A stretch of DNA of 64,000 bases from Halobacteriovorax marinus (GCA_002163155.1 MAAO01000005.1:167874-231873); one strand, 5' to 3'. Numbered from the stretch's first letter, positions 10,634 through 27,927 are shown. Notes: generated from the sequence alone by a model not told the origin. Made by a program: numbers and translations.

Positions 10634-12208
10634 CTATCTAAGCATAAATAAATTAAAGCTATGAGAGCGAATTTTTCTAAGTCCTATGATCATATCAGAG
10701 TAGAGCAAATCTTCAGACTCAAGAGAAAAGCGAAGGGATTCACAGTTCTCTTTTAATTTTTGTGAAACTTTTCTTTGCCCAGCAATAGTTGTTGCAGGAG
10801 GAGTTGTTCCAAGGTTTTCACAACAAGTTTCATAGAAGACATTAACTTCAGCAAAGAGCTTGTTGATTGAAGTGAGCTTGTCCTGTGACAACTTATGAGC
10901 ATGAACTAGCTTGGTTTTATGAGTTACAAATTTATTGATGTAGTCAGCTATATTTTCAAATTCACTGGCCACATTTAATAGAGATGTACACTCCTTAGTC
11001 TGAGCAGGGTTAAGAGAGTTTTCCAGCAGTCCATGGATAAAATACTTCATCTCATCATTGATATTATCAGTGATATCTTCATACTTTTTTATTTTAGCAA
11101 GATCTCTTGAACTCCCCTCTATAGCATGCATATAGATAGAGGCCCTAGAAAACATCTTATCTACAAGACTTTTCATTTTCTTCATTTCTCTATGCGCCTG
11201 CCATAGTGACGTAGCTGGAACCATTTGGTTTGCCGCACCGAAGAAAATAAGTTTTTGTGGAATTTTCACTTCGGGTGAGCGAATGAGCCTAAGAATAGCT
11301 TTTCTAATAAATTTAAAAAAGAGAAAAGAGATAAATACATTTATTAAATTAATACCTGAATAGAATATGGGAAGGACAAATTGAGTTCCTACTAGCTCTT
11401 CAATGACTAAGAAATACGAACTAAAGAAGTGCAAAAATATAAGTGCGACAGGTATTGAAATTGAATTTAGAATAATATTAAAAAGTGCAGCCCTCTGCCC
11501 TTCAATATTTCCTCTTTTAGAGTTGAAATAAAGTCTAAGACTTGGTCCTAGAGTAGCTCCGACTAGCACTGCACATGAGAGTTCTACCGAGATATTGTGA
11601 GTGTAGAAGAAGGCCATGAATAGGCCAATCAGTATGGCGGTACTATTTAGTAGATAAGATACAATAAAACCACTTAACAGAGCGAGAACCAGAAAGAAAA
11701 AACTTGCTTGCTGAAGAGACTCGATATTTAAGAGGGAATCTGATGAGAAGAAAATGATACTTAAGTTCAATCCCAAGTAAAGGAAACCAATCCCCAAGAT
11801 CACCCGTGAGAAGAGTTTAACAAATAGATTTCTAATAAAGTAATGCCCAATGGATCCAATAAATAAGAGTAGATATGACCAATTTCCAAGATCAAAAGTT
11901 AAAAGCCATGGAAAGACCGAAGCTCCTAAATTCACACCCATTATATAAAGAGCTGATATATAGAAGCTAACAATACCCGAGTTCACTAATCCCACAATCA
12001 AGTTGGTACAGGAAGAAACACTTAGAACACTTGCACCACTGAGCAGCCCCACAAGAAGTGAGTTCTTAGCAGTGATTTCTGTTTTTGCATTTATTCCTCT
12101 TAGAAGTTCTCCAGAGAGCGCTTGCATAGAGAGCACAAGGAAATTAATAGAGAATATGAAAAGTGCAATTCCGCCTAAAATTGGCCACATTTGATTTATT
12201 GAAAACAT
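10634..12208 (-). CDS. Na/Pi cotransporter family protein with PhoU-like C-terminus
   Basis: LGGIALFIFSI, IMGVNLGAS and LVGATLG repeats; C-terminal KYEDITDNI and FENIADY PhoU-type helices. Confidence 0.85.
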   Translation of the reverse strand: MFSINQMWPILGGIALFIFSINFLVLSMQALSGELLRGINAKTEITAKNSLLVGLLSGASVLSVSSCTNLIVGLVNSGIVSFYISALYIMGVNLGASVFPWLLTFDLGNWSYLLLFIGSIGHYFIRNLFVKLFSRVILGIGFLYLGLNLSIIFFSSDSLLNIESLQQASFFFLVLALLSGFIVSYLLNSTAILIGLFMAFFYTHNISVELSCAVLVGATLGPSLRLYFNSKRGNIEGQRAALFNIILNSISIPVALIFLHFFSSYFLVIEELVGTQFVLPIFYSGINLINVFISFLFFKFIRKAILRLIRSPEVKIPQKLIFFGAANQMVPATSLWQAHREMKKMKSLVDKMFSRASIYMHAIEGSSRDLAKIKKYEDITDNINDEMKYFIHGLLENSLNPAQTKECTSLLNVASEFENIADYINKFVTHKTKLVHAHKLSQDKLTSINKLFAEVNVFYETCCENLGTTPPATTIAGQRKVSQKLKENCESLRFSLESEDLLYSDMIIGLRKIRSHSFNLFMLR

Positions 12209-12213
12209 AGGGA

Positions 12214-12582
12214 TTAACTTGTTGTTACCTTTGCAAAGAATATGGGGATAATAATGTAGAGAATTGTATCCCTAATTAGATAGAATAAGAAAAAGTAAAT
12301 AAAGGCCTTTGGTCCCTTATCCCATAATTTCTCAATTCCTAGGTATTGAACTTTCTTACTCATGGCAATCATAAAGGGGGTTTTGCCCCAATGTCGCATG
12401 AAGAAACTTAAGCCACCATCAATTTTTTTATCGATTTTTTTAAAAGAATTCTTGAGCCAATTAGGTGCGTATTTTATGACAAAGATCATAATAATCTCGC
12501 CCCAACGCTCCCAGTAAGGCTTCTGCTCTTTTTCGCTCTCTTCAATATGCTGTACTTTACTCATGAAACACAAATACCTCAT
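12214..12582 (-). CDS. Hypothetical membrane protein
   Basis: 122-aa ORF with a hydrophobic C-terminus (FIYFFLFYLIRDTILYIIIP). Confidence 0.55.
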   Translation of the reverse strand: MRYLCFMSKVQHIEESEKEQKPYWERWGEIIMIFVIKYAPNWLKNSFKKIDKKIDGGLSFFMRHWGKTPFMIAMSKKVQYLGIEKLWDKGPKAFIYFFLFYLIRDTILYIIIPIFFAKVTTS

Positions 12583-12723
12583 TTAGTTGGGTATGTGAAA
12601 CAGTTTGAAAAAAAATTCAAACCTACATTTTCGTGACAAAAGAGTATAACTACAGGGATATATTGATAATACGTAAAATTCACGCCGAGCGTTATACACG
12701 TAAAATACCTTCAAAGGTTAGAA

Positions 12724-13647
12724 ATGATAAGCGGATTAAAAGTCATAAATTTACCATCGGGAACAGTTGTCGATCACCCTAAAAATGGAGAGCTCTTCAT
12801 TTTAAAGACGTGTCAAAGAACACTAGTTCTAGGTTTTAACTTTGTTCCCTTTCATCACTTAGGTGAAATGATTGATTCAATGGAAACTCATGTTGGTGAA
12901 AACGCCTACTCTTATCTCTTAGAAACAATTTGTGGTTTAAAAAGTAAACTTCTTGGCGAGAATGAAATCACGAGTCAGTTTAAGAAGTCCTACTCAGAGT
13001 ATTTAGGACTCTCAGTCAAAAACTCACAAGTAATGTCAGTGCTTGAAAAGCTTTTTAAAGATGCTAAAGAAATTAGAACATCTTTTTTAAGAGAAATCGG
13101 ACAACAAACTTATGCGGGAATTGCTCGTAAGCTTCTCACAGAGAAAGCTGTTTCTGGAAAAGTACTCATCGTAGGTTCAGGTCAGTTGGCAGAAGATTTA
13201 ATTAAGTTATTATCTAGAAAATATACTATATATCTCAGTGCAAGAAATGACATAAAGGTAAAAGAGCTCCTAGAGAAATATCCAGAAAGTAATATCCAAA
13301 TAGTAAAGTGGAACGATCAACTTTCTTGGAAAGAGTTCCCTTTTATTATGAATACTATTGGTGCAGACAAAATTATTTACGATGGTGATTTCTTCACTAA
13401 CTGGACTAAAAAAGATAATCGCTTATTCGTTGATTTAGGATCACCCTGTGTGGTAGAAACGTCTTATAGTGCTAAACAAAGTGTTTACCGACTCGATGAT
13501 ATTTTTGAATACGGTGAAGCGCTTAATCACAAGAAACAGCAGAAGGTGTTAAAGGCCCACGCAGCGATTGAAACTCTTGTTCAAAAACGAAAGAATTCAT
13601 TTGCTCTCAGCTTTCCATTCGGCTGGGAGGAACTTCAATTTGTCTAA
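12724..13647 (+). CDS. hemA: Glutamyl-tRNA reductase (short form)
   Basis: KTCQR (catalytic Cys), GLKSKLLGENEITSQFK, VLIVGSG, DLGSP, YRLDDI; first gene of the hem cluster. Confidence 0.85.
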   Translation: MISGLKVINLPSGTVVDHPKNGELFILKTCQRTLVLGFNFVPFHHLGEMIDSMETHVGENAYSYLLETICGLKSKLLGENEITSQFKKSYSEYLGLSVKNSQVMSVLEKLFKDAKEIRTSFLREIGQQTYAGIARKLLTEKAVSGKVLIVGSGQLAEDLIKLLSRKYTIYLSARNDIKVKELLEKYPESNIQIVKWNDQLSWKEFPFIMNTIGADKIIYDGDFFTNWTKKDNRLFVDLGSPCVVETSYSAKQSVYRLDDIFEYGEALNHKKQQKVLKAHAAIETLVQKRKNSFALSFPFGWEELQFV

Positions 13648-15181
13648 AAAAAAACATTATAAAATTGGAACTCGTGGAAGCCTTCTCGCTCTCACTCAAT
13701 GTAATCAAATAAAAGATGAGTTAGAAAGACTAACTGGAGATTCTTTTGAACTCGAAGTCTTAAAGACGCAAGGTGATTTAATTACTGACAAACCTCTGTG
13801 GCAACTAGATGGAAAAGATTTCTTCACTAAAGAGCTTGATGCAGCTCTGCTCACAGGAGCAGTTGATCTCGTTGTTCACTCCTATAAAGATTTAGGAAGT
13901 GAGAGACCCGAAGGTATAGATCTCGCAGCGGTTACTAAGAGAACCTATGCTCATGATATTCTCTTCATTAAAAATGAAACCATTAAAGATTTGAAAAACA
14001 AGTCAGAGTTTATTGTAGGAACAAGTTCTCCTAGAAGAATTGTTAATTTAGAAAAGAACCTTGAGCGTTTTCTACCTGTATCAACACCATTAAAAGTAAA
14101 AACTGAAATGCTTCGTGGGAACGTGAATACAAGAATTTCAAAATTACGTGACGGTAATTACGATGCTATCGTTTTGGCACTTCCTGGAATTGAAAGATTG
14201 GCCCATACAGACTCTTCGTTACAAGAGCTAAAAGGACTGCTTGAAGGATTGAATTACATGATTCTTCCTCAATCGGTATTCCCTTCTGCTGCTTCTCAAG
14301 GAGCATTGGCTATAGAAAGTCTGGCCACCAGTACTGAGCTTAAAGAAAAGTTAAAGTTAATTGAAGATAGAAACACTGTTGAAGAAATCATAAGAGAGAG
14401 AAAAGCTTTCGCTAGTTATGGTGGAGGCTGTCACCTCGCAGTAGGAATTAATGTCAGAAAATTTGAAGATAATTACATCCATATTCATCAAGGAATTTCA
14501 GACGATACAGAAGTCTTTAAATTTGAACTAGAAAATCATAAAGAAGACTTTACTGGAAATAGAGCTAAGGCCTTTATTGGACTTCCAAAAGAGAAGTTTA
14601 ACCATGAAACTATCCTCTCTGATCAATTCGTTGAAAAGAAGAAGCTAAGTATTGAAAAAACGAATAAGTTCTATGACGTCTTTGTCACAAGTACCTATTG
14701 CACAGATGCTTTAGAGAGCTTCAGTGAGATACAAAACCTATGGACTGCAGGAACAAAGACCATGGAAGTACTCGCTAAGAAAGGCCTGTGGGTAAATGGA
14801 AGTAGTGATTCTCTTGGAGAAGCAGAGCTAGAATCCCTAAGAGATTCAAAGTGTATTGCGCAAATGAAACAGAAGAATGATCTAGCAGTACTTTCCCACG
14901 ATAAAGCGACTTCAGAGTATGGAGAAGTTTTTAAATGTTACGAACGAGTTCTCAATGAGCTAAGTGTGGAAGAAATTAAAAGTCTTGAAGAAACACAAGT
15001 GTTCTATTGGACAAGTTTTTTACAATACGTAGATTTTGTAAATAAAGTACCTAGTATTAAAGACAAGTTTCATTGCACAGGACTTGGAAAAACCTATCAA
15101 AAATTTAAAGAACAAAACATTGCTATAAAACCATTCACTAGCGCTACTGAGTTTAGAGAATGGTTAAACCAAGGTAAATAA
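13640..15181 (+). CDS. hemC: Porphobilinogen deaminase with C-terminal HemD-like extension
   Basis: IGTRGSLLA, TQGD, FFTKELD, VHSYKD, GTSSPRR, RGNVNTRISKL, GGCH cofactor site, then ~200 extra aa. Likely TTG start at 13640 after GGAGG (track start 13568). Confidence 0.93.
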   Translation: MSKKKHYKIGTRGSLLALTQCNQIKDELERLTGDSFELEVLKTQGDLITDKPLWQLDGKDFFTKELDAALLTGAVDLVVHSYKDLGSERPEGIDLAAVTKRTYAHDILFIKNETIKDLKNKSEFIVGTSSPRRIVNLEKNLERFLPVSTPLKVKTEMLRGNVNTRISKLRDGNYDAIVLALPGIERLAHTDSSLQELKGLLEGLNYMILPQSVFPSAASQGALAIESLATSTELKEKLKLIEDRNTVEEIIRERKAFASYGGGCHLAVGINVRKFEDNYIHIHQGISDDTEVFKFELENHKEDFTGNRAKAFIGLPKEKFNHETILSDQFVEKKKLSIEKTNKFYDVFVTSTYCTDALESFSEIQNLWTAGTKTMEVLAKKGLWVNGSSDSLGEAELESLRDSKCIAQMKQKNDLAVLSHDKATSEYGEVFKCYERVLNELSVEEIKSLEETQVFYWTSFLQYVDFVNKVPSIKDKFHCTGLGKTYQKFKEQNIAIKPFTSATEFREWLNQGK

Positions 15182-15182
15182 G

Positions 15183-16451
15183 ATGAGTACACAAAGTGAA
15201 TTATTTTCAAAATCAACAAAACTAGTTCCAGGAGGAGTTCATTCTCCGGTTAGAAGTTTCAAAGGACTTCACACCACGCCTAGATTTATTGAAAGGGCCG
15301 ATGGAGCTTATATATATGATGTAGAAGGAAACTCTTATATTGATTTCTGCATGAGTTTTGGTCCTCTCATACTTGGACACAAGAATTCACTTGTAGAAGA
15401 GGAGCTAAAGAAAGCTCTTTCTAGAGGTTGGAGTTATGGAGCTTGCGAGCCCTATTCATTAGACCTTGCAGAATATCTCTTAAGTAGACTGCCGTTTGTA
15501 GATCAAATTCGTTTTGTGAACTCTGGAACAGAAGCTGTTATGACAGCACTAAGACTGGCCAGAGGTGCAACAAAGAGAAATAAAGTTATTAAGTTCAATG
15601 GTTGTTATCACGGACATGTGGATAGCATGCTCATAAAAGCAGGTTCAGGACTTGCCGGGACAAGTGAAGCTTCAAGTGCAGGAGTTCCTGAGGGAACTTC
15701 ACAAGATACTTTAATCTTAGAACTTGGAGACATTGAAGGAATCACTCAATGTTTTAAAGACCACGCTGGTGAAATTGCCGCAATTATAGTTGAACCACTG
15801 CCAGCTAATAATGGCCTCTTAGTTCAAGACAAAGAATTCTTAACGTTTCTACGTGAAGTCACAAAAGAAAATGATTCACTTCTTATTTTTGATGAAGTGA
15901 TTTCAGGTTTTAGAGTGGCCTTTGGTGGAATGACTGAACTCACTGGAATTATTCCTGACATTGTCACTTACGGAAAAATTATCGGTGGCGGATTACCAGT
16001 TGGTGCCATTGCCGCGAAATTCGATATTATGCAAAACCTCGCCCCAATAGGTGGAGTTTACCAAGCGGGAACATTGAGTGCTAATCCTTTGGCCATGGTT
16101 GGAGGCTTGAAAACACTAGAGCTCTTAGATAAGAAAAGTTACGAAGCTCTCAATGAAAACACTTCTAAAATTGTCACTCTCTTTAAGAAATGGCTAAAAG
16201 AATTCAATGATGGACAATTTTCTGATTACAGTGTTCTGTCTCACAGTTCTCTTTTCTGGATCGTACCAGGTGAAGAGATTAATTGTGTAAATAAAATACC
16301 AGCAGATATTACTGAGAAGTTTAATCCTCTCTTTGAAATTCTTTTAAATAAAGGAATTTATCTTTCTCCAAATGCCTACGAAGTAGGATTCGGAAGTCTT
16401 GCACACGATGATAAACTCATTGCAGACTTAGAAAAGAGACTTTGGAGCTAA
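15183..16451 (+). CDS. hemL: Glutamate-1-semialdehyde 2,1-aminomutase
   Basis: PGGVHSPVR, RFVNSGTEA, GCYHGH, FDEVISGFR, YGKIIGGGLP (PLP Lys), AGTLSANP. Confidence 0.96.
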   Translation: MSTQSELFSKSTKLVPGGVHSPVRSFKGLHTTPRFIERADGAYIYDVEGNSYIDFCMSFGPLILGHKNSLVEEELKKALSRGWSYGACEPYSLDLAEYLLSRLPFVDQIRFVNSGTEAVMTALRLARGATKRNKVIKFNGCYHGHVDSMLIKAGSGLAGTSEASSAGVPEGTSQDTLILELGDIEGITQCFKDHAGEIAAIIVEPLPANNGLLVQDKEFLTFLREVTKENDSLLIFDEVISGFRVAFGGMTELTGIIPDIVTYGKIIGGGLPVGAIAAKFDIMQNLAPIGGVYQAGTLSANPLAMVGGLKTLELLDKKSYEALNENTSKIVTLFKKWLKEFNDGQFSDYSVLSHSSLFWIVPGEEINCVNKIPADITEKFNPLFEILLNKGIYLSPNAYEVGFGSLAHDDKLIADLEKRLWS

Positions 16452-16452
16452 G

Positions 16453-17352
16453 TTGAAAAAAGGGAACTCTCTTCTCATTCTCACATCACTTCTTATTGCT
16501 ACGACAATGACGTTAGCGACATGGTGGTCTTATCTCCTCTATTCTTTCGGAGATAAGATAGAGAAAATGTCAGTGAGACTTCCTGAACTTGGAATAAAGC
16601 CAAATCTTATAAAGATGTTGAAGTGGGAAACATCAACATTTATAATTCTCATTCTTCTGTTGAGTGTGAGTTTCTTAGTGGTTTATTTGAAAGACCAAAA
16701 GAAAACCAAGGCGCTACAAGATTTCTTTGCAAGCCTTACTCATGAATTAAAAACTCCCCTGGCCAGTATTAGACTTCAGTCCGAAGTCATTACTGATCTT
16801 GTGGAAACTGTAGAACATAAGCAACTGACTACTCTAACCTCTAGACTCATAGAAGATACAACAAATCTAGAAGTTCAAATGGATAAAATCCTACAACTTT
16901 CTAGATTAGAAAGAGGTGGAACACTCAGTCCTGTAGCTGTTGAACTTGAAGGAATAATCAAGCGAGTTCATAAAGATCTAGGTTATGATCAAAAAGTTGA
17001 AATAGATAGTTTCTATGACCAAGAAGTTTTAGCAGACGAATTTGCCTTAGAGCTTATTATTAAAAATCTCTTTGAAAATACTAAGAACCATTCATTAACA
17101 AATAATATTAAAGTCTCTATTAAGGAAAGTAGTGATTCAAATTATGTAGACCTCTCCTACTGTGATGGAGGAGTTTTTACTGGTGACATTAAAAAGCTAG
17201 GAAATCTCTTTTATAAATATAATAGTAAAAAAGGCAGCGGAATAGGCCTATATCTTATAAAGAAGTTCATGCCCTTAATGCAAGGAAGAGCGAACTTTAT
17301 TGTTCAAGACACCCTTTTAACAAAGCTTACATTTAAAAAGGTCAATCAATGA
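16453..17352 (+). CDS. Sensor histidine kinase
   Basis: Two TM segments; H-box THELKTPLASI; N-box KNLFEN; G-box GSGIGLY. Confidence 0.92.
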   Translation: MKKGNSLLILTSLLIATTMTLATWWSYLLYSFGDKIEKMSVRLPELGIKPNLIKMLKWETSTFIILILLLSVSFLVVYLKDQKKTKALQDFFASLTHELKTPLASIRLQSEVITDLVETVEHKQLTTLTSRLIEDTTNLEVQMDKILQLSRLERGGTLSPVAVELEGIIKRVHKDLGYDQKVEIDSFYDQEVLADEFALELIIKNLFENTKNHSLTNNIKVSIKESSDSNYVDLSYCDGGVFTGDIKKLGNLFYKYNSKKGSGIGLYLIKKFMPLMQGRANFIVQDTLLTKLTFKKVNQ

Positions 17353-18044
17353 TAAAAGGTAAAATCCTCATCGTTGAGGATGAAAAAAATCTTGGAACAA
17401 CTCTCCAAGAATATTTAAATGGTCTAGGACATGAGTGTCAGTTGGCCACAACAGGTGAAGAAGCAAGATCTCTCTTTAGAGAGTCTAGTCCTGAAATCAT
17501 TCTGATGGACATTGGTCTTCCCGATGCGAATGGGTTAGATCTAGCGCGCGAATTTAGAAAAGAGCGAAAAGACTTTGTTCTACTCTTCTTATCAGCACTC
17601 AATGATCCTGAGATACGCGTAGAAGGTTTAGAAATAGGTGCAGAAGATTATATAACTAAACCATTTGCCCTAAAAGAATTAGTCTTAAGACTTAATAGAA
17701 TACTGATACATCAAGATGACAAGAGACTCGTCCCTGACGAATTGAGCTTTGGTGATTTAAAAATATGGTTTAAGAAGTTCGAAGTTGAAAATGGTGAAGG
17801 GCAAATTCAGGCCTTATCGCAAAAAGAATGTTCCATCTTGCAGCTTCTGTTAAATAATCAGAATGAGGCCACTACAAGAGAGCAAATTATCGAAAAGGTT
17901 TGGGGAGCTGATAAATTCCCTTCGAATCGCACAGTAGATAACTATATTGTGACGCTGAGAAAGTGGTGTGATTCATCAAAAGATAAAGTTTTAGAAATAA
18001 AAAGTATAAGAGGAATTGGCTATAAACTAGTCATAAATAAATAG
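17349..18044 (+). CDS. OmpR-family response regulator
   Basis: ILIVEDE, LMDIGLPD, DYITKPF, RTVDNYI and RGIGYK motifs; ATGA overlap with the kinase. Confidence 0.94.
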   Translation: MIKGKILIVEDEKNLGTTLQEYLNGLGHECQLATTGEEARSLFRESSPEIILMDIGLPDANGLDLAREFRKERKDFVLLFLSALNDPEIRVEGLEIGAEDYITKPFALKELVLRLNRILIHQDDKRLVPDELSFGDLKIWFKKFEVENGEGQIQALSQKECSILQLLLNNQNEATTREQIIEKVWGADKFPSNRTVDNYIVTLRKWCDSSKDKVLEIKSIRGIGYKLVINK

Positions 18045-18052
18045 AGGGAATT

Positions 18053-19093
18053 ATGGGATTATTTGACGACAGAACAATGACAAATGGAAAGACAGGAGTA
18101 CCTGTTTGGTTTATGAGACAGGCCGGAAGATACCACTCTCACTACCAAAATATTAAAAAAGATTCGGACTTTATGACAATGTGTAAGACACCAAGTCTTG
18201 CCAACGATATTACTCACGGACCAATCGACGATTTTGGTTTTGATGCGGCCATACTCTTTTCAGATCTACTCTTTCCTCTTGAACAATTGGGAATGGGACT
18301 TAGCTATAAGAGTGGACCTCCTACTCTTGAGAGAAGAATTCATACTTTAAAAGATTTAGATCTTATTAAAGCAACGACTCCTGCGAAGGAATTTTATAAA
18401 TTTCAAAAAGATGCCTGTTCTCTTTTAAGAGCAAGTCTTGCACCAGAAAAGACTCTACTAGGTTTTGTTGGAGCTCCATTTACGCTCTATTCATATGCAG
18501 CCGAAGGGAGTCACGCAGGTAACCTTACAAGTTCAAAACTAGGACTCTATGATGGAAGATTCCAAGGATTCCTAGAAAAGTTACTTCCTGAGCTTGTAGA
18601 AAACATGACTCAACAGGTGGAAGGTGGAGCCGATGCCATGTGCCTTTTTGACACTGCTGTTGGTGAATTACACATTAGAGATTATAAGAAATACATTATC
18701 CCAGCGCTAAAATCTGTGACTAAGGCCTTTAAGGCGAAGCATCCGGATAAGAAAATTATTTATTATTCAAAACTTACTCACATCAATTACTTGCACGCAA
18801 TAGAAGATGAGAACATTGATGTTCTAGGTGTAGATTGGAGAATGGATCTTTCAATGGCGCTTAATGAACTTGGAAAAGATTATTACGTACAAGGAAACTT
18901 TGATCCAAGCTGGTTACACCTACCTTGGGAACATGTTGAAACTAACTTACAGCACATGTGGCAAGACCTACAAGATGGTAATGTCCCTTTTGAAAAATGG
19001 ATTTGTGGTCTAGGACACGGAGTTCTACAACATACACCAGAAGATAACGTTAGAAATGCAGTCAAATATATTCACGAGAACTTTCTCTACTAG
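18053..19093 (+). CDS. hemE: Uroporphyrinogen decarboxylase
   Basis: PVWFMRQAGRY, DAAILFSD, LGFVGAPFTL, QGNFDP, GLGHGV. Confidence 0.96.
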   Translation: MGLFDDRTMTNGKTGVPVWFMRQAGRYHSHYQNIKKDSDFMTMCKTPSLANDITHGPIDDFGFDAAILFSDLLFPLEQLGMGLSYKSGPPTLERRIHTLKDLDLIKATTPAKEFYKFQKDACSLLRASLAPEKTLLGFVGAPFTLYSYAAEGSHAGNLTSSKLGLYDGRFQGFLEKLLPELVENMTQQVEGGADAMCLFDTAVGELHIRDYKKYIIPALKSVTKAFKAKHPDKKIIYYSKLTHINYLHAIEDENIDVLGVDWRMDLSMALNELGKDYYVQGNFDPSWLHLPWEHVETNLQHMWQDLQDGNVPFEKWICGLGHGVLQHTPEDNVRNAVKYIHENFLY

Positions 19094-20358
19094 TGTTGGA
19101 TAATCTCAAAGAGCTTCTTTTAAATTTTCATGCTCCGGGTAGACGCTATAGTTACTACCCGGCCCTCCCTAGTTGGAAACATAAGTTTACTCAAGATGAA
19201 GTACTCTCTTCTATGAATTTAAAAGAAGTAGACCTCTATATTCATCTCCCCTTTTGCGAAAACCTTTGTACCTTTTGTGGTTGTAATATAAAGGTCACAA
19301 AAGATAGATCACAATTCAAAGACTATATAGATCTAATCTTAAAAGAGTGGAAAGAGTATCAAACCCTTTCAAATGAGCTGGTCATTAATTCAATCTATTT
19401 AGGAGGAGGAACTCCTACCTATCTAAATGAAACTGAACTTAATTATCTAATGGAAGGAATATTTAAAAACGTTAAGGTTAGTGAAAATTTTAAAGGAACA
19501 GTTGAAAGTGACCCCAGGGTTGATCAGAAACTTCAACTTAGGGCCCTTGCAAACTATGGATTTAAAAATATTAGTCTAGGAGTGCAAGATCTTGATGAGA
19601 GAACTCTCTCCAATGTAAATAGACATCAGCATACAACAGATATTTTTAAAACAATTAATACAGCGAGAGAAGAAAACTTCGAGTTTATCAATATCGATTT
19701 AATCTACGGGTTACCTTTTCAGACAAAGAAGTCGTTTGAAAATACTGCGACAAAAATTCTCGAGCTCGCTCCTACTAGTATATCCAACTATCCTCTCGCT
19801 AAAGTTCCTTGGCAAACAGGTCCGCAAAATGCCTATGGCATATATGAACCTTTAAATGTTTCAGAAATGTACGACTTATATATTCTTGCAGATGATATTT
19901 TTCATAGCTCTGGATTCTCCCTATTAGGTATGGGGCACTATAGTAACTTACAAGAAAAACAATTCCGAAATATTATGGGATATACGACGAATAAGACAGT
20001 AGATCTCTTAGGCCTCGGTGTCTCTTCTCTTTCAAATGTAGGAGATATACTCTTTCAAAGAGAAAAAATCTTAGAAAAATATATGTATAATCCCTTCGCT
20101 GAGGTTATTGGTCATAGAAAATCTGAAAAAGAAATACGTCTCGAACAACTCTTTCACCAAGTCACATGTGACCATATAATAACGAAAAGCTCCCTTGCAA
20201 AAGTTATTGAGGAAGAAAGTCTTGAAAAACTTGAAAAGACGTTTTCCTATTTAACAAACAATGGACTTTTGATTGATGACAAGGAAAGTTATGCTATTTC
20301 TAAAGATGGTAAACATTTCCTAAGAACGATCTGCCAAACTATTGAAAACTTCTCTTAA
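19093..20358 (+). CDS. hemN: Oxygen-independent coproporphyrinogen III oxidase
   Basis: PGRRYSYYP, LYIHLPFCENLCTFCGC, GGGTPT, DLIYGLPFQT, RNIMGYT, GLGVSS. Confidence 0.88.
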   Translation: MLDNLKELLLNFHAPGRRYSYYPALPSWKHKFTQDEVLSSMNLKEVDLYIHLPFCENLCTFCGCNIKVTKDRSQFKDYIDLILKEWKEYQTLSNELVINSIYLGGGTPTYLNETELNYLMEGIFKNVKVSENFKGTVESDPRVDQKLQLRALANYGFKNISLGVQDLDERTLSNVNRHQHTTDIFKTINTAREENFEFINIDLIYGLPFQTKKSFENTATKILELAPTSISNYPLAKVPWQTGPQNAYGIYEPLNVSEMYDLYILADDIFHSSGFSLLGMGHYSNLQEKQFRNIMGYTTNKTVDLLGLGVSSLSNVGDILFQREKILEKYMYNPFAEVIGHRKSEKEIRLEQLFHQVTCDHIITKSSLAKVIEEESLEKLEKTFSYLTNNGLLIDDKESYAISKDGKHFLRTICQTIENFS

Positions 20359-20387
20359 AGGAAAACGGGAAGAGAGCACTCTCCCCG
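20358..20387 (-). terminator. Intrinsic terminator after the M48 peptidase
   Basis: Minus strand CGGGGAGAG-TGCT-CTCTTCCCG followed by TTTTCCTTT. Confidence 0.7.
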
Positions 20388-20399
20388 CAAACTATCAAT

Positions 20400-21809
20400 T
20401 TAATTATCTTCTTTAAAGTGACTATGAATCTCAGTTTTAATCATCTTACCAAGACCTTCAACAAAGGCCTTACCAGTGATTTCGCTTCCAAATTTCGTAT
20501 CAGCTGCAATTGCTAATAACTCTTCCTTAGCAATATCAAAGTCAGTAGTATTCGTTACATAATCAACCTTACCCTGATCATAGAATAGAGATGAAAGGTT
20601 CGCTACCTGATCGATTCTCTCGTCGTGAGTTGGATGTGAACTTGTTAACTTCTCTAAAGTTGTGGCATTTCCACTTGTAGAATTCTTTTTAAATGTTTGA
20701 AACATTTTAGCAATTCCCCATGGCTCAAAGTTTAGTCTCTGAGAGTATTGAGAACCAATTCTATCTGCTTCTAGTTCTGCTTTACGCCCTTTATTTAAAA
20801 TTGAAAGGTAAGCTCCACCAACAGCGGCAACACTTATTATATCAGCAAGAACTTTATACTTATCTTCATCTTTTACTGCGGCTACACCCTGAGCTGCTGC
20901 TGCAACTAATAAAGCAGCACCGATAGATCTCATTGAACGAGACATATTCTCAGTTCCGTGACGGGCAGTAACATGGGCCCACTCATGACCAAGAACTCCT
21001 ACTAATTCACTCTCATCTTGAACACTGTCAATGAGTCCTCTAAAGACGAAGACATATCCACCAGGAAGTGCAAAAGCATTCATAATATTAGCATTAATAA
21101 CATAGGCCTTAGGAGTAAGATCTGGCATGTCAGAGACTTGTGCAATTTTCTCCATTAAGTTTTGAATATATTCAGAAGTTGCATGATCTTGGTCTAAAAC
21201 AGATCCCTTATTCTTTGCTAAGAAATCTTCAGTAAACTCACGACCTAACTTTTCATCATCTTCAAGAGAATAAAAATTTCCTTTAAAAAATGAATCTTCA
21301 TTTGGGTTTAAATCACGAGTACCAATTTCATTTGGTCCGTAGAGGTTTAACTTCTTTCCACTACATGAAAGTAGAGAAGTAAATTTAGTGAAATCAATTA
21401 TGAGTGTTTTATCTTCTTTAGTCACTGTCATTGTGTTCTTACAATTAACTCCAGATAGGTCCTCATCATCAATTTCAACATCACCATCACTAACGACTAC
21501 TTTCTTCTCTTTAATTTTTCCCTTAAAACTTATTTCAGCTTCTGGCGAAAACTTATCATCATTAATAGTAAGTAAATTCTTATATTTGATTTTCATATAT
21601 ACTGAAGATATCTTATGAGTATCAAGGTTTATGACTTGTTCAGAATCAACTAAATCAAACTTGATTTTCTCATCACCTAATTCAAGAGAGCCTTTAAGGT
21701 TCCCAGAAACAGCTGCATTTCTCTTGATCACAATTTGATTAATTTCAACCTCATTACAGGCCGTCACTAATAACATAAGCATTAAAAGTAATGGTTTCTT
21801 CATACACAC
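20400..21809 (-). CDS. M48 family Zn metallopeptidase, probable lipoprotein
   Basis: Lipobox LVTAC; NAFALPGG, GHEWAHV (HEXXH), ELEADRIG, SHPTHDERI. Confidence 0.9.
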   Translation of the reverse strand: MCMKKPLLLMLMLLVTACNEVEINQIVIKRNAAVSGNLKGSLELGDEKIKFDLVDSEQVINLDTHKISSVYMKIKYKNLLTINDDKFSPEAEISFKGKIKEKKVVVSDGDVEIDDEDLSGVNCKNTMTVTKEDKTLIIDFTKFTSLLSCSGKKLNLYGPNEIGTRDLNPNEDSFFKGNFYSLEDDEKLGREFTEDFLAKNKGSVLDQDHATSEYIQNLMEKIAQVSDMPDLTPKAYVINANIMNAFALPGGYVFVFRGLIDSVQDESELVGVLGHEWAHVTARHGTENMSRSMRSIGAALLVAAAAQGVAAVKDEDKYKVLADIISVAAVGGAYLSILNKGRKAELEADRIGSQYSQRLNFEPWGIAKMFQTFKKNSTSGNATTLEKLTSSHPTHDERIDQVANLSSLFYDQGKVDYVTNTTDFDIAKEELLAIAADTKFGSEITGKAFVEGLGKMIKTEIHSHFKEDN

Positions 21810-26263: not shown

Positions 26264-26980
26264 TTACTTCGGATCGAAGATATAGCCAACAGACCTAAGT
26301 GATTTAAAATACACTGGATTCTTGGGATCAGCTTCGAAATATTTTCTGAATCTTACAATAAAGTTGTCCACAGTTCTGGTAGAAGTTTCACCATCATAGC
26401 CCCAGGCCGTCTCAAGTAGCTCTTTTCTTGAAAGTGGTTGTCCAATATGAGAGATGAAAACTTGTAAGAGTTTAACCTCTTGTTCTGTAAGTTGAATGGG
26501 ATTCCCACCAACAGTGGCCACCATTTTCTTAAAATCGATGTCCACATTGGAAAAGCTATAAGTCTCTCCAATATACATTTCCACCACATGAGCACTTTGA
26601 GTTTCTTCTTTATACCAATCGGCTTTTTTTAAAAGTCGTTCAACACGAAGGAGCAGTTCATCTAAGTCAAAAGGTTTTGCAAGATAATCATCAACACCTT
26701 TATTGAGAGCTTTAACTTTATCTCTAGAAGCATCTTTAGCTGAGAGAATGAGAATAGGAATTTTCTGATCAACCTTTCTTATTTCTTCTAGAACTTTGAT
26801 TCCATCAATACCAGGTAACATAATATCTAAAAGAATAAGATCAGGTTGCCATGAAGTCCACATTTTAAGGGCTTCAATTCCGTCCTCAGCATGTTCAACA
26901 TTATGACCCTGAAGCTTTAAATTTAGTTTAAGACCTTCGGCAAGATGCTTTTCGTCTTCAACAATTAATACTTTCTTCAT
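26264..26980 (-). CDS. OmpR-family response regulator
   Basis: VLIVEDE, LLDIMLP, DDYLAKPF, TRTVDNFI, RSVGY. Confidence 0.94.
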   Translation of the reverse strand: MKKVLIVEDEKHLAEGLKLNLKLQGHNVEHAEDGIEALKMWTSWQPDLILLDIMLPGIDGIKVLEEIRKVDQKIPILILSAKDASRDKVKALNKGVDDYLAKPFDLDELLLRVERLLKKADWYKEETQSAHVVEMYIGETYSFSNVDIDFKKMVATVGGNPIQLTEQEVKLLQVFISHIGQPLSRKELLETAWGYDGETSTRTVDNFIVRFRKYFEADPKNPVYFKSLRSVGYIFDPK

Positions 26981-27927
26981 GATTTAGTACTCTCTCGTTG
27001 GATTAATAGTGTGAATGTAGAACCTTTCTCTAGGCCTTCACTTTCTATATCTATTCTTCCCTTATGTATTTTTAGTATCTGAGACGTAAGATATAGACCT
27101 AGCCCACTACCTTTTGTCGTCTTACCAATCTGGTAGAACTTTCTAAAAATATTTCGCTGTTCACTCTTATCGATTCCTTTTCCATTATCAACAAAGTCAA
27201 TGGCCATTTTTCTTCCAAGAGAGCGAAAGCTAATTTCAACAATAGGTTTCTTTGTATTATTATATCTAAAGGCGTTAGTGAGAATATTCATGAAAACCAT
27301 TTCCATTAATGAAGTATCAATTAACGCAAAATAATCAACATGATCAATTTTCTTAACAATTATTTCGCCATCTTCAAAGAGGTGTGGATTCTTGGCAAGA
27401 AAGTCTTCTAGAAAAAGAAAGAGATTATGACGATACCTTTTCACGGTGAAGTTCTTATCTTCAATTCTACCTAAATTTAAAATTTGTCCAACGTTATCAG
27501 ATAAACGTTCCGTATCACGAATCATATATTCAATATACTTGAGTTGATCTTCCCTAGAGAGTTCATGCTTCTTGAAGGTGTCTAAGAAAAGTCTCATGGA
27601 AGCAATGGGAGTTTTCAGTTCATGGGTAAAACCGTTAATGAAGTTTTGCTGCAACCTATAGAGCTGAATAACTTTTTGATAATAAACAAAGATAATAATT
27701 GTTCCCGCAAGAATAATCGCCACTAACACCGAAAGAAAGAGAATGGTCACCCAAGTATCAGCTTCAAGAAATTGAACCGCTTCAATTTTATTTTTATCTA
27801 CGAAAATTCGAAGAGAATCATAAACACCTAGATAAGACTGGATATACACAACCAGAGAAGTGATGAGTGCTATCAGGGAGAAAGTGAATATAAAAATTGG
27901 GTGGAAGTACCACTTAAATGATCTCAT
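26977..27927 (-). CDS. Sensor histidine kinase
   Basis: Two TM segments; FTHELKTPIAS; NILTNA; DNGKGI; GSGLGLY. Confidence 0.93.
   Translation of the reverse strand: MRSFKWYFHPIFIFTFSLIALITSLVVYIQSYLGVYDSLRIFVDKNKIEAVQFLEADTWVTILFLSVLVAIILAGTIIIFVYYQKVIQLYRLQQNFINGFTHELKTPIASMRLFLDTFKKHELSREDQLKYIEYMIRDTERLSDNVGQILNLGRIEDKNFTVKRYRHNLFLFLEDFLAKNPHLFEDGEIIVKKIDHVDYFALIDTSLMEMVFMNILTNAFRYNNTKKPIVEISFRSLGRKMAIDFVDNGKGIDKSEQRNIFRKFYQIGKTTKGSGLGLYLTSQILKIHKGRIDIESEGLEKGSTFTLLIQRESTKS

Follow-up and report, generated by a model that had tools for sequence, protein, structure and literature searches.

The closest described relative of the locus studied here is the two-component system HemK/HemR of Leptospira (Hklep/Rrlep; LEPBIa1423/1422 in L. 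biflexa and LB014/LB015 in L. interrogans). According to PMC11426443, 5-aminolevulinic acid (ALA) sets off HemK's phosphatase activity in L. biflexa, where phosphorylated HemR (HemR~P) activates hemA; in Leptospira, HemR~P binds TGACA-N6-TGACA, hereafter the hem-box, upstream of hemA and hmuO (same source, citing Morero 2014). Here, we analyzed a stretch of 64,000 nucleotides from Halobacteriovorax marinus (GCA_002163155.1, MAAO01000005.1:167874-231873), referred to as the window, which carries seven genes head to tail on the plus strand at 12724-20358, hemA-hemC/D-hemL-HK-RR-hemE-hemN, with a histidine kinase (HK) and a response regulator (RR) embedded among heme biosynthesis genes. We consider this locus a self-regulated heme operon of a Halobacteriovorax-like predator, the embedded pair of which is a true HemK/HemR orthologue and the module of which is native to much of the Bdellovibrionota and was passed to Leptospira, with a probability of about 0.8.

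In Bdellovibrio bacteriovorus, a member of the same phylum, a hem-linked two-component system with the same linkage of pair and heme genes as in the window was noted as "data not shown" by Louvel et al. 2008 (BMC Microbiol 8:25; PMC2266917). The remark comes without sequences, box, distribution, or phylogeny. Beyond it, our literature search found no text on a linkage of the pair with hem genes in Bdellovibrionota, and nothing on the box outside Leptospira or on a Bdellovibrionota origin of the Leptospira operon; Morero et al. 2014 might hold comparative remarks on these subjects. The locus is a known system and not a new kind, and the bare linkage in Bdellovibrio has been on record since 2008. 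Our additions appear to be its breadth in the phylum, the conservation of the box across phyla together with a family variant, a congruent history of the whole operon, and a third lineage.

In HssRS and ChrSA/HrrSA of Gram-positives, an OmpR-type regulator is paired with a small membrane kinase that presumably senses a tetrapyrrole inside the membrane. These systems sense heme, control efflux or degradation, and are not known to be part of a biosynthesis operon. The title of Morero 2014 reportedly describes HemR as PhoB-like, and the locus resembles PhoR/PhoB in its OmpR/PhoB-type regulator and in a pair of direct repeats that follow each other with an 11-bp period beside the -10 region. It differs in that a PAS or PhoU-linked input is absent from the window kinase, the repeat orientation is opposite to that of the pho-box consensus, and the targets are heme genes.

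The embedded pair and its distribution

Genes were called from open reading frames (ORFs) together with Pfam and NCBIfam family scans of the window proteins. The kinase gene (16453-17352, plus strand) encodes a HemK-type sensor histidine kinase of 299 aa with HisKA and HATPase_c domains, and the regulator gene (17349-18044, plus strand) encodes a HemR-type response regulator of the OmpR/PhoB family (231 aa; Response_reg and Trans_reg_C). A preliminary description of the window had reported gaps of 8 nt or less, or overlaps, between the genes, a probable Bdellovibrionota host, and kinship of the pair with Leptospira HemK/HemR. The ORF coordinates bear out the first at all six junctions, which are, in order, an overlap of 8 nt between hemA and hemC (if translation of the latter begins at TTG 13640), two gaps of 1 nt, an overlap of 4 nt (ATGA), a gap of 8 nt, and an overlap of 1 nt, and the nearest named kinase homologues belong to Halobacteriovorax spp. 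(57-63% identity), as expected for such a host.

The proposed kinship was also recovered in our searches. When the L. interrogans HK was searched against the window's genome (G000), the window HK was the best match (132.4 bits; next kinase, 62.5 bits), and the window HK searched against the whole L. interrogans genome returned the hem-cluster HK first (134.4 bits; next, 30.6 bits), so that the two are reciprocal best matches. The L. interrogans RR, searched against G000 in this direction only, likewise matched the window RR best, with a narrower margin than the kinase (161.6 bits; next, 134.5 bits). Among 72,556 plasmid or chromid records, two L. interrogans chromosome-II records were the best matches of the window HK (124 and 122 bits; next, 88 bits). 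The best PDB match of the window RR receiver domain was 4q7e (91.4 bits; next, 83.6 bits), the N-terminus of which agrees with the L. biflexa hemR primer in the S1 Table of PMC11426443. A PDB sequence search with the window HK returned only HprS (E 3.5e-9), and the L. biflexa primer HemK1_Rev from the same table gave 0 matches in a scan of a collection of genome contigs.

The window pair has the same size and domain plan as HemK/HemR. According to PMC11426443 and PMC2266917, about 80 N-terminal residues of Leptospira HemK are membrane and periplasmic, the kinase carries His98, Thr102 was mutated in complementation and protein constructs, and the phospho-acceptor of HemR is Asp53. Two membrane helices can be read from the sequence of the window HK (predicted at about residues 6-28 and 61-78), with a loop of about 32 aa and without HAMP; the kinase's HisKA domain starts at residue 88, after the two hydrophobic stretches, and includes His97 and Thr101, and the phospho-acceptor of the window RR is Asp54. 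To within one residue, both pairs agree in the placement of the phospho-His, the Thr at H+4, and the phospho-Asp, His98 and Asp53 of L. biflexa being His97 and Asp54 of the window. When the window kinase was aligned with those of five more family codes of Bdellovibrionota, of three Leptospira classes, and of an additional spirochaete, we found an invariant WW in the first transmembrane helix (TM1), a variable loop, M-x3-E at the start of TM2, no HAMP, and the H-box Thr at H+4.

The window HK is only about 33% identical to Leptospira HemK, and the window RR 38% identical to HemR. The pair is flanked by hemL and hemE as in L. interrogans, with a short HemA, a fused HemC/D, and a direct-repeat box upstream of hemA, whereas in L. 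biflexa it lies away from the hem cluster. The window locus differs from Leptospira in its cluster without hemB, the half-site CTACA in place of TGACA, a genome without hmuO, and a predatory Bdellovibrionota host.

Our surveys and trees cover two phyla, Bdellovibrionota and Spirochaetota. Among 301 sampled Bdellovibrionota genomes, the kinase was found at E <= 1e-20 in 155, G000 included, across at least 14 of our family codes (f1, 60/67; f9, 29/35; f13, 12/18; f14, 27/34; f15, 12/12; and nine smaller codes), and HemE was found in 240. Protein representatives listed 150 HK relatives. For synteny, about 19 kb was fetched from each of 40 of the 154 other HK-positive genomes, which we chose, not at random, to span 12 family codes. 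In 40/40 loci, hemC/D ... hemL-HK-RR-hemE lay on one strand. The hemB gene was placed between hemC/D and hemL in 18 of them (the f15, f19, f21, f24, and f27 loci and all f14 loci except one), which gives the exact L. interrogans order hemA-hemC/D-hemB-hemL-HK-RR-hemE-hemN; the cluster of the window's family is without hemB, and in five of six f9 loci and the f23 locus this gene is divergent and upstream. The most variable member is hemN, which is not adjacent in 9/40 loci. The f9 loci, which possibly represent Bdellovibrio, have the order hemA-hemC/D-hemL-HK-RR-hemE-hemN with an exact box, and their proteins share 27-31% (HK) and about 37-39% (RR) identity with those of the window's Halobacteriovorax-like family. 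Much of the Bdellovibrionota thus has the module as a native trait, which is not peculiar to the window's genome, in agreement with the wider distribution of HemKR-type sensing that the preliminary description had offered as one explanation.

The L. interrogans chromosome-II region contains genes for a hypothetical protein (the short HemA) and a bifunctional HemC/D, followed by hemB, hemL, HK, RR, hemE, hemN, DUF5683, and hemG, with hemH on the opposite strand. Among 301 sampled Spirochaetota genomes searched at E <= 1e-15, a strong HK orthologue (249 bits or more) occurred in 45, all of them Leptospira-like by identity class (15 at 74-100%, 11 at 52-53%, and 19 at 44-48%). After these, scores fell to 74 bits or less in 13 genomes, and the remaining 243 had no match at this threshold. 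All 26 loci of the first two classes contained hemB-hemL-HK-RR-hemE, and the pair stood alone in the four inspected loci of the third class, which agrees with the difference between pathogenic species and L. biflexa described in PMC11426443 and PMC2266917. The full cluster was found in eight named pathogenic-group Leptospira species. One of the 13 weak matches came from a spirochaete with a 5.4-Mb genome (G359), the locus of which (L128, G359:C133:82000-100000; 69% G+C) holds a rearranged cluster, hemH-hemA-HK-RR-hemE-hemN-hemG-hemC...hemB-hemL, with a distant HK/RR between hemA and hemE and an exact box, TGACAGAATCGTGACA, about 115 nt upstream of hemA. The G359 regulator falls inside the hem-linked clade, and its HemL outside the joint Bdellovibrionota and Leptospira clade. 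With HK, RR, and an exact box in this cluster, the module is therefore present in at least a third lineage.

The hem-box and the region upstream of hemA

A variant hem-box, CTACATTTTCGTGACA, was found at 12623-12638 on the plus strand. The hemA ATG follows 85 nt downstream of it, and the start of the divergent orf122 is 41 nt away. It consists of two direct pentamers 11 bp apart (CTACA-N6-TGACA) and is a predicted HemR binding site. The window contained no exact TGACA-N6-TGACA, and its 45 matches with up to two mismatches were fewer than in shuffled sequences (mean 62.6); the site at 12623 is meaningful only because of the comparison with relatives.

This comparison included 49 Bdellovibrionota loci, namely 38 of the 40 synteny loci (L035 and L058, to which no hemA ORF was assigned, were left out), the window, and 10 further f1 loci. 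An exact box was located upstream of hemA on the gene strand in 28/49. Outside the window's family, the box was exact in 26 of 28 loci and had one mismatch in the other two. Within the family (21 loci), the first pentamer was CTACA in 16, the window included, TTACA in two, AGACA in one, and exact TGACA in two. The 40 large loci contained 30 exact boxes in 1.49 million positions, compared with 1.4 expected, and 28 of the 30 were those of hemA. Additionally, TGACACTTCTTTGACA occupied the same place upstream of hemA in L. interrogans and in each of three further named Leptospira loci that we checked. Four f9 loci (L055, L056, L057, and L068) had a third repeat, TGAAA, after the exact box at the same 11-bp spacing, which results in three direct repeats upstream of hemA.

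A -10-like hexamer, TATATT, lies at 12659-12664 on the plus strand, 20 nt downstream of the box, and may be part of the promoter. It is kept within ATATATTG in four of five genus loci aligned by eye, and the fifth has TTATATTG. The location of the box just upstream of a conserved TATATT would suit an activator. A scan for consensus promoters gave no more matches than expected by chance (19, compared with 21.2 expected).

The whole genome G000 has seven CTACA-N6-TGACA sites, of which only two are intergenic, one at hemA and one at a TonB-dependent receptor gene. The latter, CTACAAATATATGACA (G000:C13:311903-311918), lies 32 nt upstream of the gene for this 682-aa receptor (L124:251-2299). An orthologue was present in one of five relatives searched (G095, another genus), with CTACAAAATTGTGACA just upstream (L140), whereas searches of four genomes of the same genus did not find the receptor. 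According to PMC11426443, HemR of L. biflexa has targets in the TonB system, of which the receptor box is reminiscent; by this analogy, the box may serve as a lead. Other exact or variant boxes in G000, upstream of genes for FliL, an MMPL protein, and a PhoR-like kinase, were not counted as regulon members. An exact TGACATATGTCTGACA at G000:C1:1035271-1035286 (L121) was observed 36 nt upstream of the gene for a 532-aa kinase (DUF3404 and HisKA), and the regulator adjoining this kinase is the genome's second-best match to HemR. TGACA-N6-TGACA is close to the reverse complement of the pho box, and the repeat of TGACATATGTCTGACA is pho-box-like when read on the other strand.

History of the operon

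In the HK tree (39 rows, careful search, rooted on four G000 paralogues), six Leptospira sequences (100/97) were sister to an 11-row group of f9, f13, f23, f28, and two f14 loci (100/98). Leptospira and this f9/f13 group were joined with a support of 97/99, apart from f1 (100/99) and from an f14/f15 group (92/89). The same 17-row clade was obtained in the RR tree, with a Shimodaira-Hasegawa-like approximate likelihood ratio test (SH-aLRT) value of 99 and a weak 78 on the branch parting hem-linked regulators from paralogues, and the same split had a support of 100 in a concatenated HemC/D+HemL+HemE+HemN tree (1,722 columns, no outgroup). The HemL tree, for which ten other spirochaete sequences and four named bacteria served as outgroups, contained a Bdellovibrionota and Leptospira clade (100, branch length 0.81) that excluded all 14 outgroup sequences; inside it, Leptospira was sister to the f9/f13 group (99), with f1 next (93).

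Since the kinase and HemL trees nest Leptospira in the phylum and close orthologues among the sampled Spirochaetota occur only in Leptospira-like genomes, transfer from Bdellovibrionota to Leptospira is favored. A lineage near the f9/f13 subgroup most likely supplied Leptospira with the entire operon, including the regulator and the box. The horizontal exchange considered in the preliminary description is in line with this result. Its term "Leptospira-like" was right as to kinship, but its polarity should probably be reversed, the operon being a Bdellovibrionota one acquired by Leptospira. A transfer from Leptospira to the f9/f13 ancestor, or of a cassette to both lineages from an unsampled third phylum, seems unlikely to us and would leave orthology and regulation unchanged. 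It is true that Leptospira is sister to the f9/f13 group and not nested within it, and that topology alone gives no direction. A third lineage does exist in G359, with its 69%-GC, rearranged hem cluster containing HK, RR, and an exact box, and the protein atlas includes look-alike kinase clusters with Ignavibacteriota as their commonest phylum, and one with Spirochaetota. However, f1 and the f14/f15 group branch outside the clade of Leptospira and f9/f13 in the HemL and HK trees, both with outgroups, and a Leptospira origin would need a second transfer. Moreover, close orthologues are confined to the 45 Leptospira-like genomes in Spirochaetota, compared with at least 14 family codes in Bdellovibrionota, and the ten other spirochaete HemL sequences remain outside the joint clade.

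All four trees (kinase, regulator, HemL, and concatenated) placed the f14 operons L064 and L070 with the f9/f13 subgroup, away from the remaining f14 loci. This placement hints at operon transfer within the phylum.

Proposed regulation and the heme pathway

Our comparisons show the gene content of the window operon, the orthology of its pair, a conserved synteny and cis-element, and a history that the whole operon shares with that of Leptospira. By analogy with L. biflexa, box binding, the direction of regulation, and the signal would be as follows. HemK, a membrane kinase of small size that lacks a sensor domain in the cytoplasm, would phosphorylate HemR on Asp54, and HemR~P would bind CTACA-N6-TGACA at 12623-12638, upstream of the -10-like element, and activate the operon, including its own genes. 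With the build-up of ALA or a later porphyrin intermediate, HemK would turn phosphatase, for which Thr101 would be required, HemR would be dephosphorylated, and heme synthesis would be turned down. In the saprophyte L. biflexa, added ALA is reported to lead to rapid HemR dephosphorylation (PhosTag) and shutdown, and loss of hemKR to a need for ALA or hemin; Louvel et al. tested complementation of an L. biflexa hemK mutant with the L. interrogans gene. That a predator might gain from sensing the precursors of its prey is speculation.

The pair might also control the operon and sense another signal, such as iron, the oxygen or redox state, or membrane stress, which would be relevant to the attack and growth phases. 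We regard this as rather unlikely, even though the extracytoplasmic loop is poorly conserved between phyla. PMC2266917 reports that the loop is dispensable in L. biflexa and that the true ligand site is not known, and PMC11426443 reports Leptospira hemKR as peroxide-induced and linked to iron tolerance. In contrast, the conservation across phyla of WW in TM1, M-x3-E at TM2, and the phosphatase Thr points to one conserved sensing mechanism, and the constant position of the pair amid the genes from ALA to coproporphyrinogen is consistent with feedback through an intermediate of the pathway. We consider it very improbable that the two-component genes are passengers with unrelated targets and that the upstream repeat is bound by another OmpR/PhoB-type regulator. 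Such a regulator could come from the several OmpR-type paralogues in G000, the nearest of which has 134.5 bits with L. interrogans HemR, and the box is near the reverse complement of the pho box. Nevertheless, the box, exact or in its family variant, accompanies the pair in 49/49 Bdellovibrionota loci, always on the gene strand, and this association holds across three lineages with other genes rearranged. In Leptospira, HemR~P is reported bound to the same box (PMC11426443, citing Morero 2014).

Several points weigh against a native, self-regulated HemKR operon as the origin and function of this locus. In its upstream half-site, the window box departs from the Leptospira consensus at two positions, which makes its predicted binding less certain than in other families. 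Given the likeness of the box to a reversed pho box, it could in principle be recognized by a PhoB-like paralogue, and an exact box also lies upstream of a PhoR-like kinase gene in G000. The periplasmic loop of the kinase shows no conservation between phyla, so that a different signal is conceivable. An HmuO-type heme oxygenase was not found in G000, so that one arm of the Leptospira regulon is missing. At E <= 1e-20, no kinase was found in f4, f6, f7, f11, or f20 despite HemE in 17/20, 26/34, 6/9, 13/14, and 4/4 of their genomes, respectively, and the module is therefore not universal in the phylum. With regard to the transfer, the root of the HK tree on long paralogue branches is weak (70/46), and the direction was judged from two phyla only. 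A single clade of all 29 Bdellovibrionota rows was rejected by approximately unbiased (AU) tests at moderate significance (p-AU 0.029 for the kinase and 0.030 for HemL), values that are indicative only because the tested group was defined after seeing the trees.

Our data show that a system studied as a peculiarity of Leptospira is, with kinase, regulator, and box, standard equipment of much of the Bdellovibrionota. Its many natural variants of sensor, regulator, and box could help to work out how a minimal membrane kinase detects tetrapyrrole precursors. In addition, an origin of the Leptospira heme operon is suggested, and the operon offers a testable control point for the heme economy of predators, for which starvation alternates with sudden influxes of metabolites from prey. 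A bolder scenario, which we put forward tentatively and at somewhat less than even odds, is that a self-regulating hem cassette moved between phyla, so that Leptospira, including its pathogens, owes its whole C5 heme pathway and the regulation thereof to a Bdellovibrionota-like predator, with a rearranged copy in a third, high-GC spirochaete lineage, and that predators may stop de novo synthesis when ALA or porphyrins of the prey flood the cell.

Six heme-pathway enzyme activities are encoded by the operon. The first gene, hemA (12724-13647, plus strand), encodes a short, putative glutamyl-tRNA reductase of 307 aa with GlutR_N and NAD-binding (Shikimate_DH) domains above the Pfam cut-offs, and is the sole GluTR_N match in the whole genome. 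No dimerisation domain was detected in this protein by family scans, and it scored 67.5 bits with NCBIfam TIGR01035 (cut-off, 209.55). Cys30 and Arg32 of its T-C-x-R motif were invariant in 43/43 aligned short HemA proteins, including that of L. interrogans. The bifunctional hemC/D gene (13640-15181, plus strand; frame open from 13568, with an uncertain start at TTG 13640) matched Porphobil_deam (E 8.8e-58) and TIGR00212 (223.8 bits; cut-off, 164). The C-terminal 211 residues of its product had no Pfam HEM4 match, and this part was modelled separately with AlphaFold because the deaminase domain dominated a whole-protein fold search. The model had a predicted local distance difference test (pLDDT) value of 91.3, and its 12 best PDB matches were all uroporphyrinogen-III synthases (TM-score of 0.63-0.67 to 3re1, 4es6, and 3p9z). 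The 99.99%-complete genome yielded no separate HEM4 gene, and the earlier assignment of this gene as hemC(+D) agrees with these results.

The remaining enzymes on the plus strand are HemL, glutamate-1-semialdehyde 2,1-aminomutase (15183-16451; NF000818, 517 bits with a cut-off of 398), HemE, uroporphyrinogen decarboxylase (18053-19093; URO-D, E 9e-81), and a HemN-family radical-SAM protein (19093-20358). The last of these had 244 bits with TIGR00538, under the equivalog cut-off of 325, and is a probable oxygen-independent coproporphyrinogen dehydrogenase. Elsewhere in G000, we identified hemB on contig 1 (G000:C1:1247082-1248038), a HemJ-type gene on contig 15, and the sole ferrochelatase of the genome, which is encoded in one 814-aa frame fused to a complete major facilitator superfamily (MFS) transporter domain (G000:C13:518125-520569; L139:1444-3888). 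A HemY-type oxidase was not found in G000 with the L. interrogans query. Given the pathway genes in the operon together with hemB, the ferrochelatase, and the HemJ-type gene, the organism therefore appears capable of de novo heme synthesis.

A G+C-rich hairpin at 20365-20388, called on the minus strand by the scan, lies between the convergent hemN and M48 protease genes and probably marks the end of the operon. An Rfam scan of 12000-21000 matched no family. On the other side of the operon, orf122 (12214-12582, minus strand) encodes a 122-aa protein divergent from hemA without a Pfam or NCBIfam match. It was 61-72% identical in 8 of 11 inspected loci of the family, its atlas clusters were commonest in Bdellovibrionota, and it could be under shared HemR control. 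Between orf122 and the hem-box, an element at 12592-12615, TATGTGAAACAGTTTGAAAAAAAA, was near-identical in 5/5 genus loci aligned by eye. Finally, 6 kb downstream of the operon, the minus strand at 26264-27927 encodes a second small HisKA kinase (316 aa) and an OmpR-type regulator (238 aa). Within the genome, the kinase ranks second among the matches to L. interrogans HemK (62.5 bits) and its regulator third among those to HemR (108.7 bits), and the two may be a distant paralogue of the HemKR pair.

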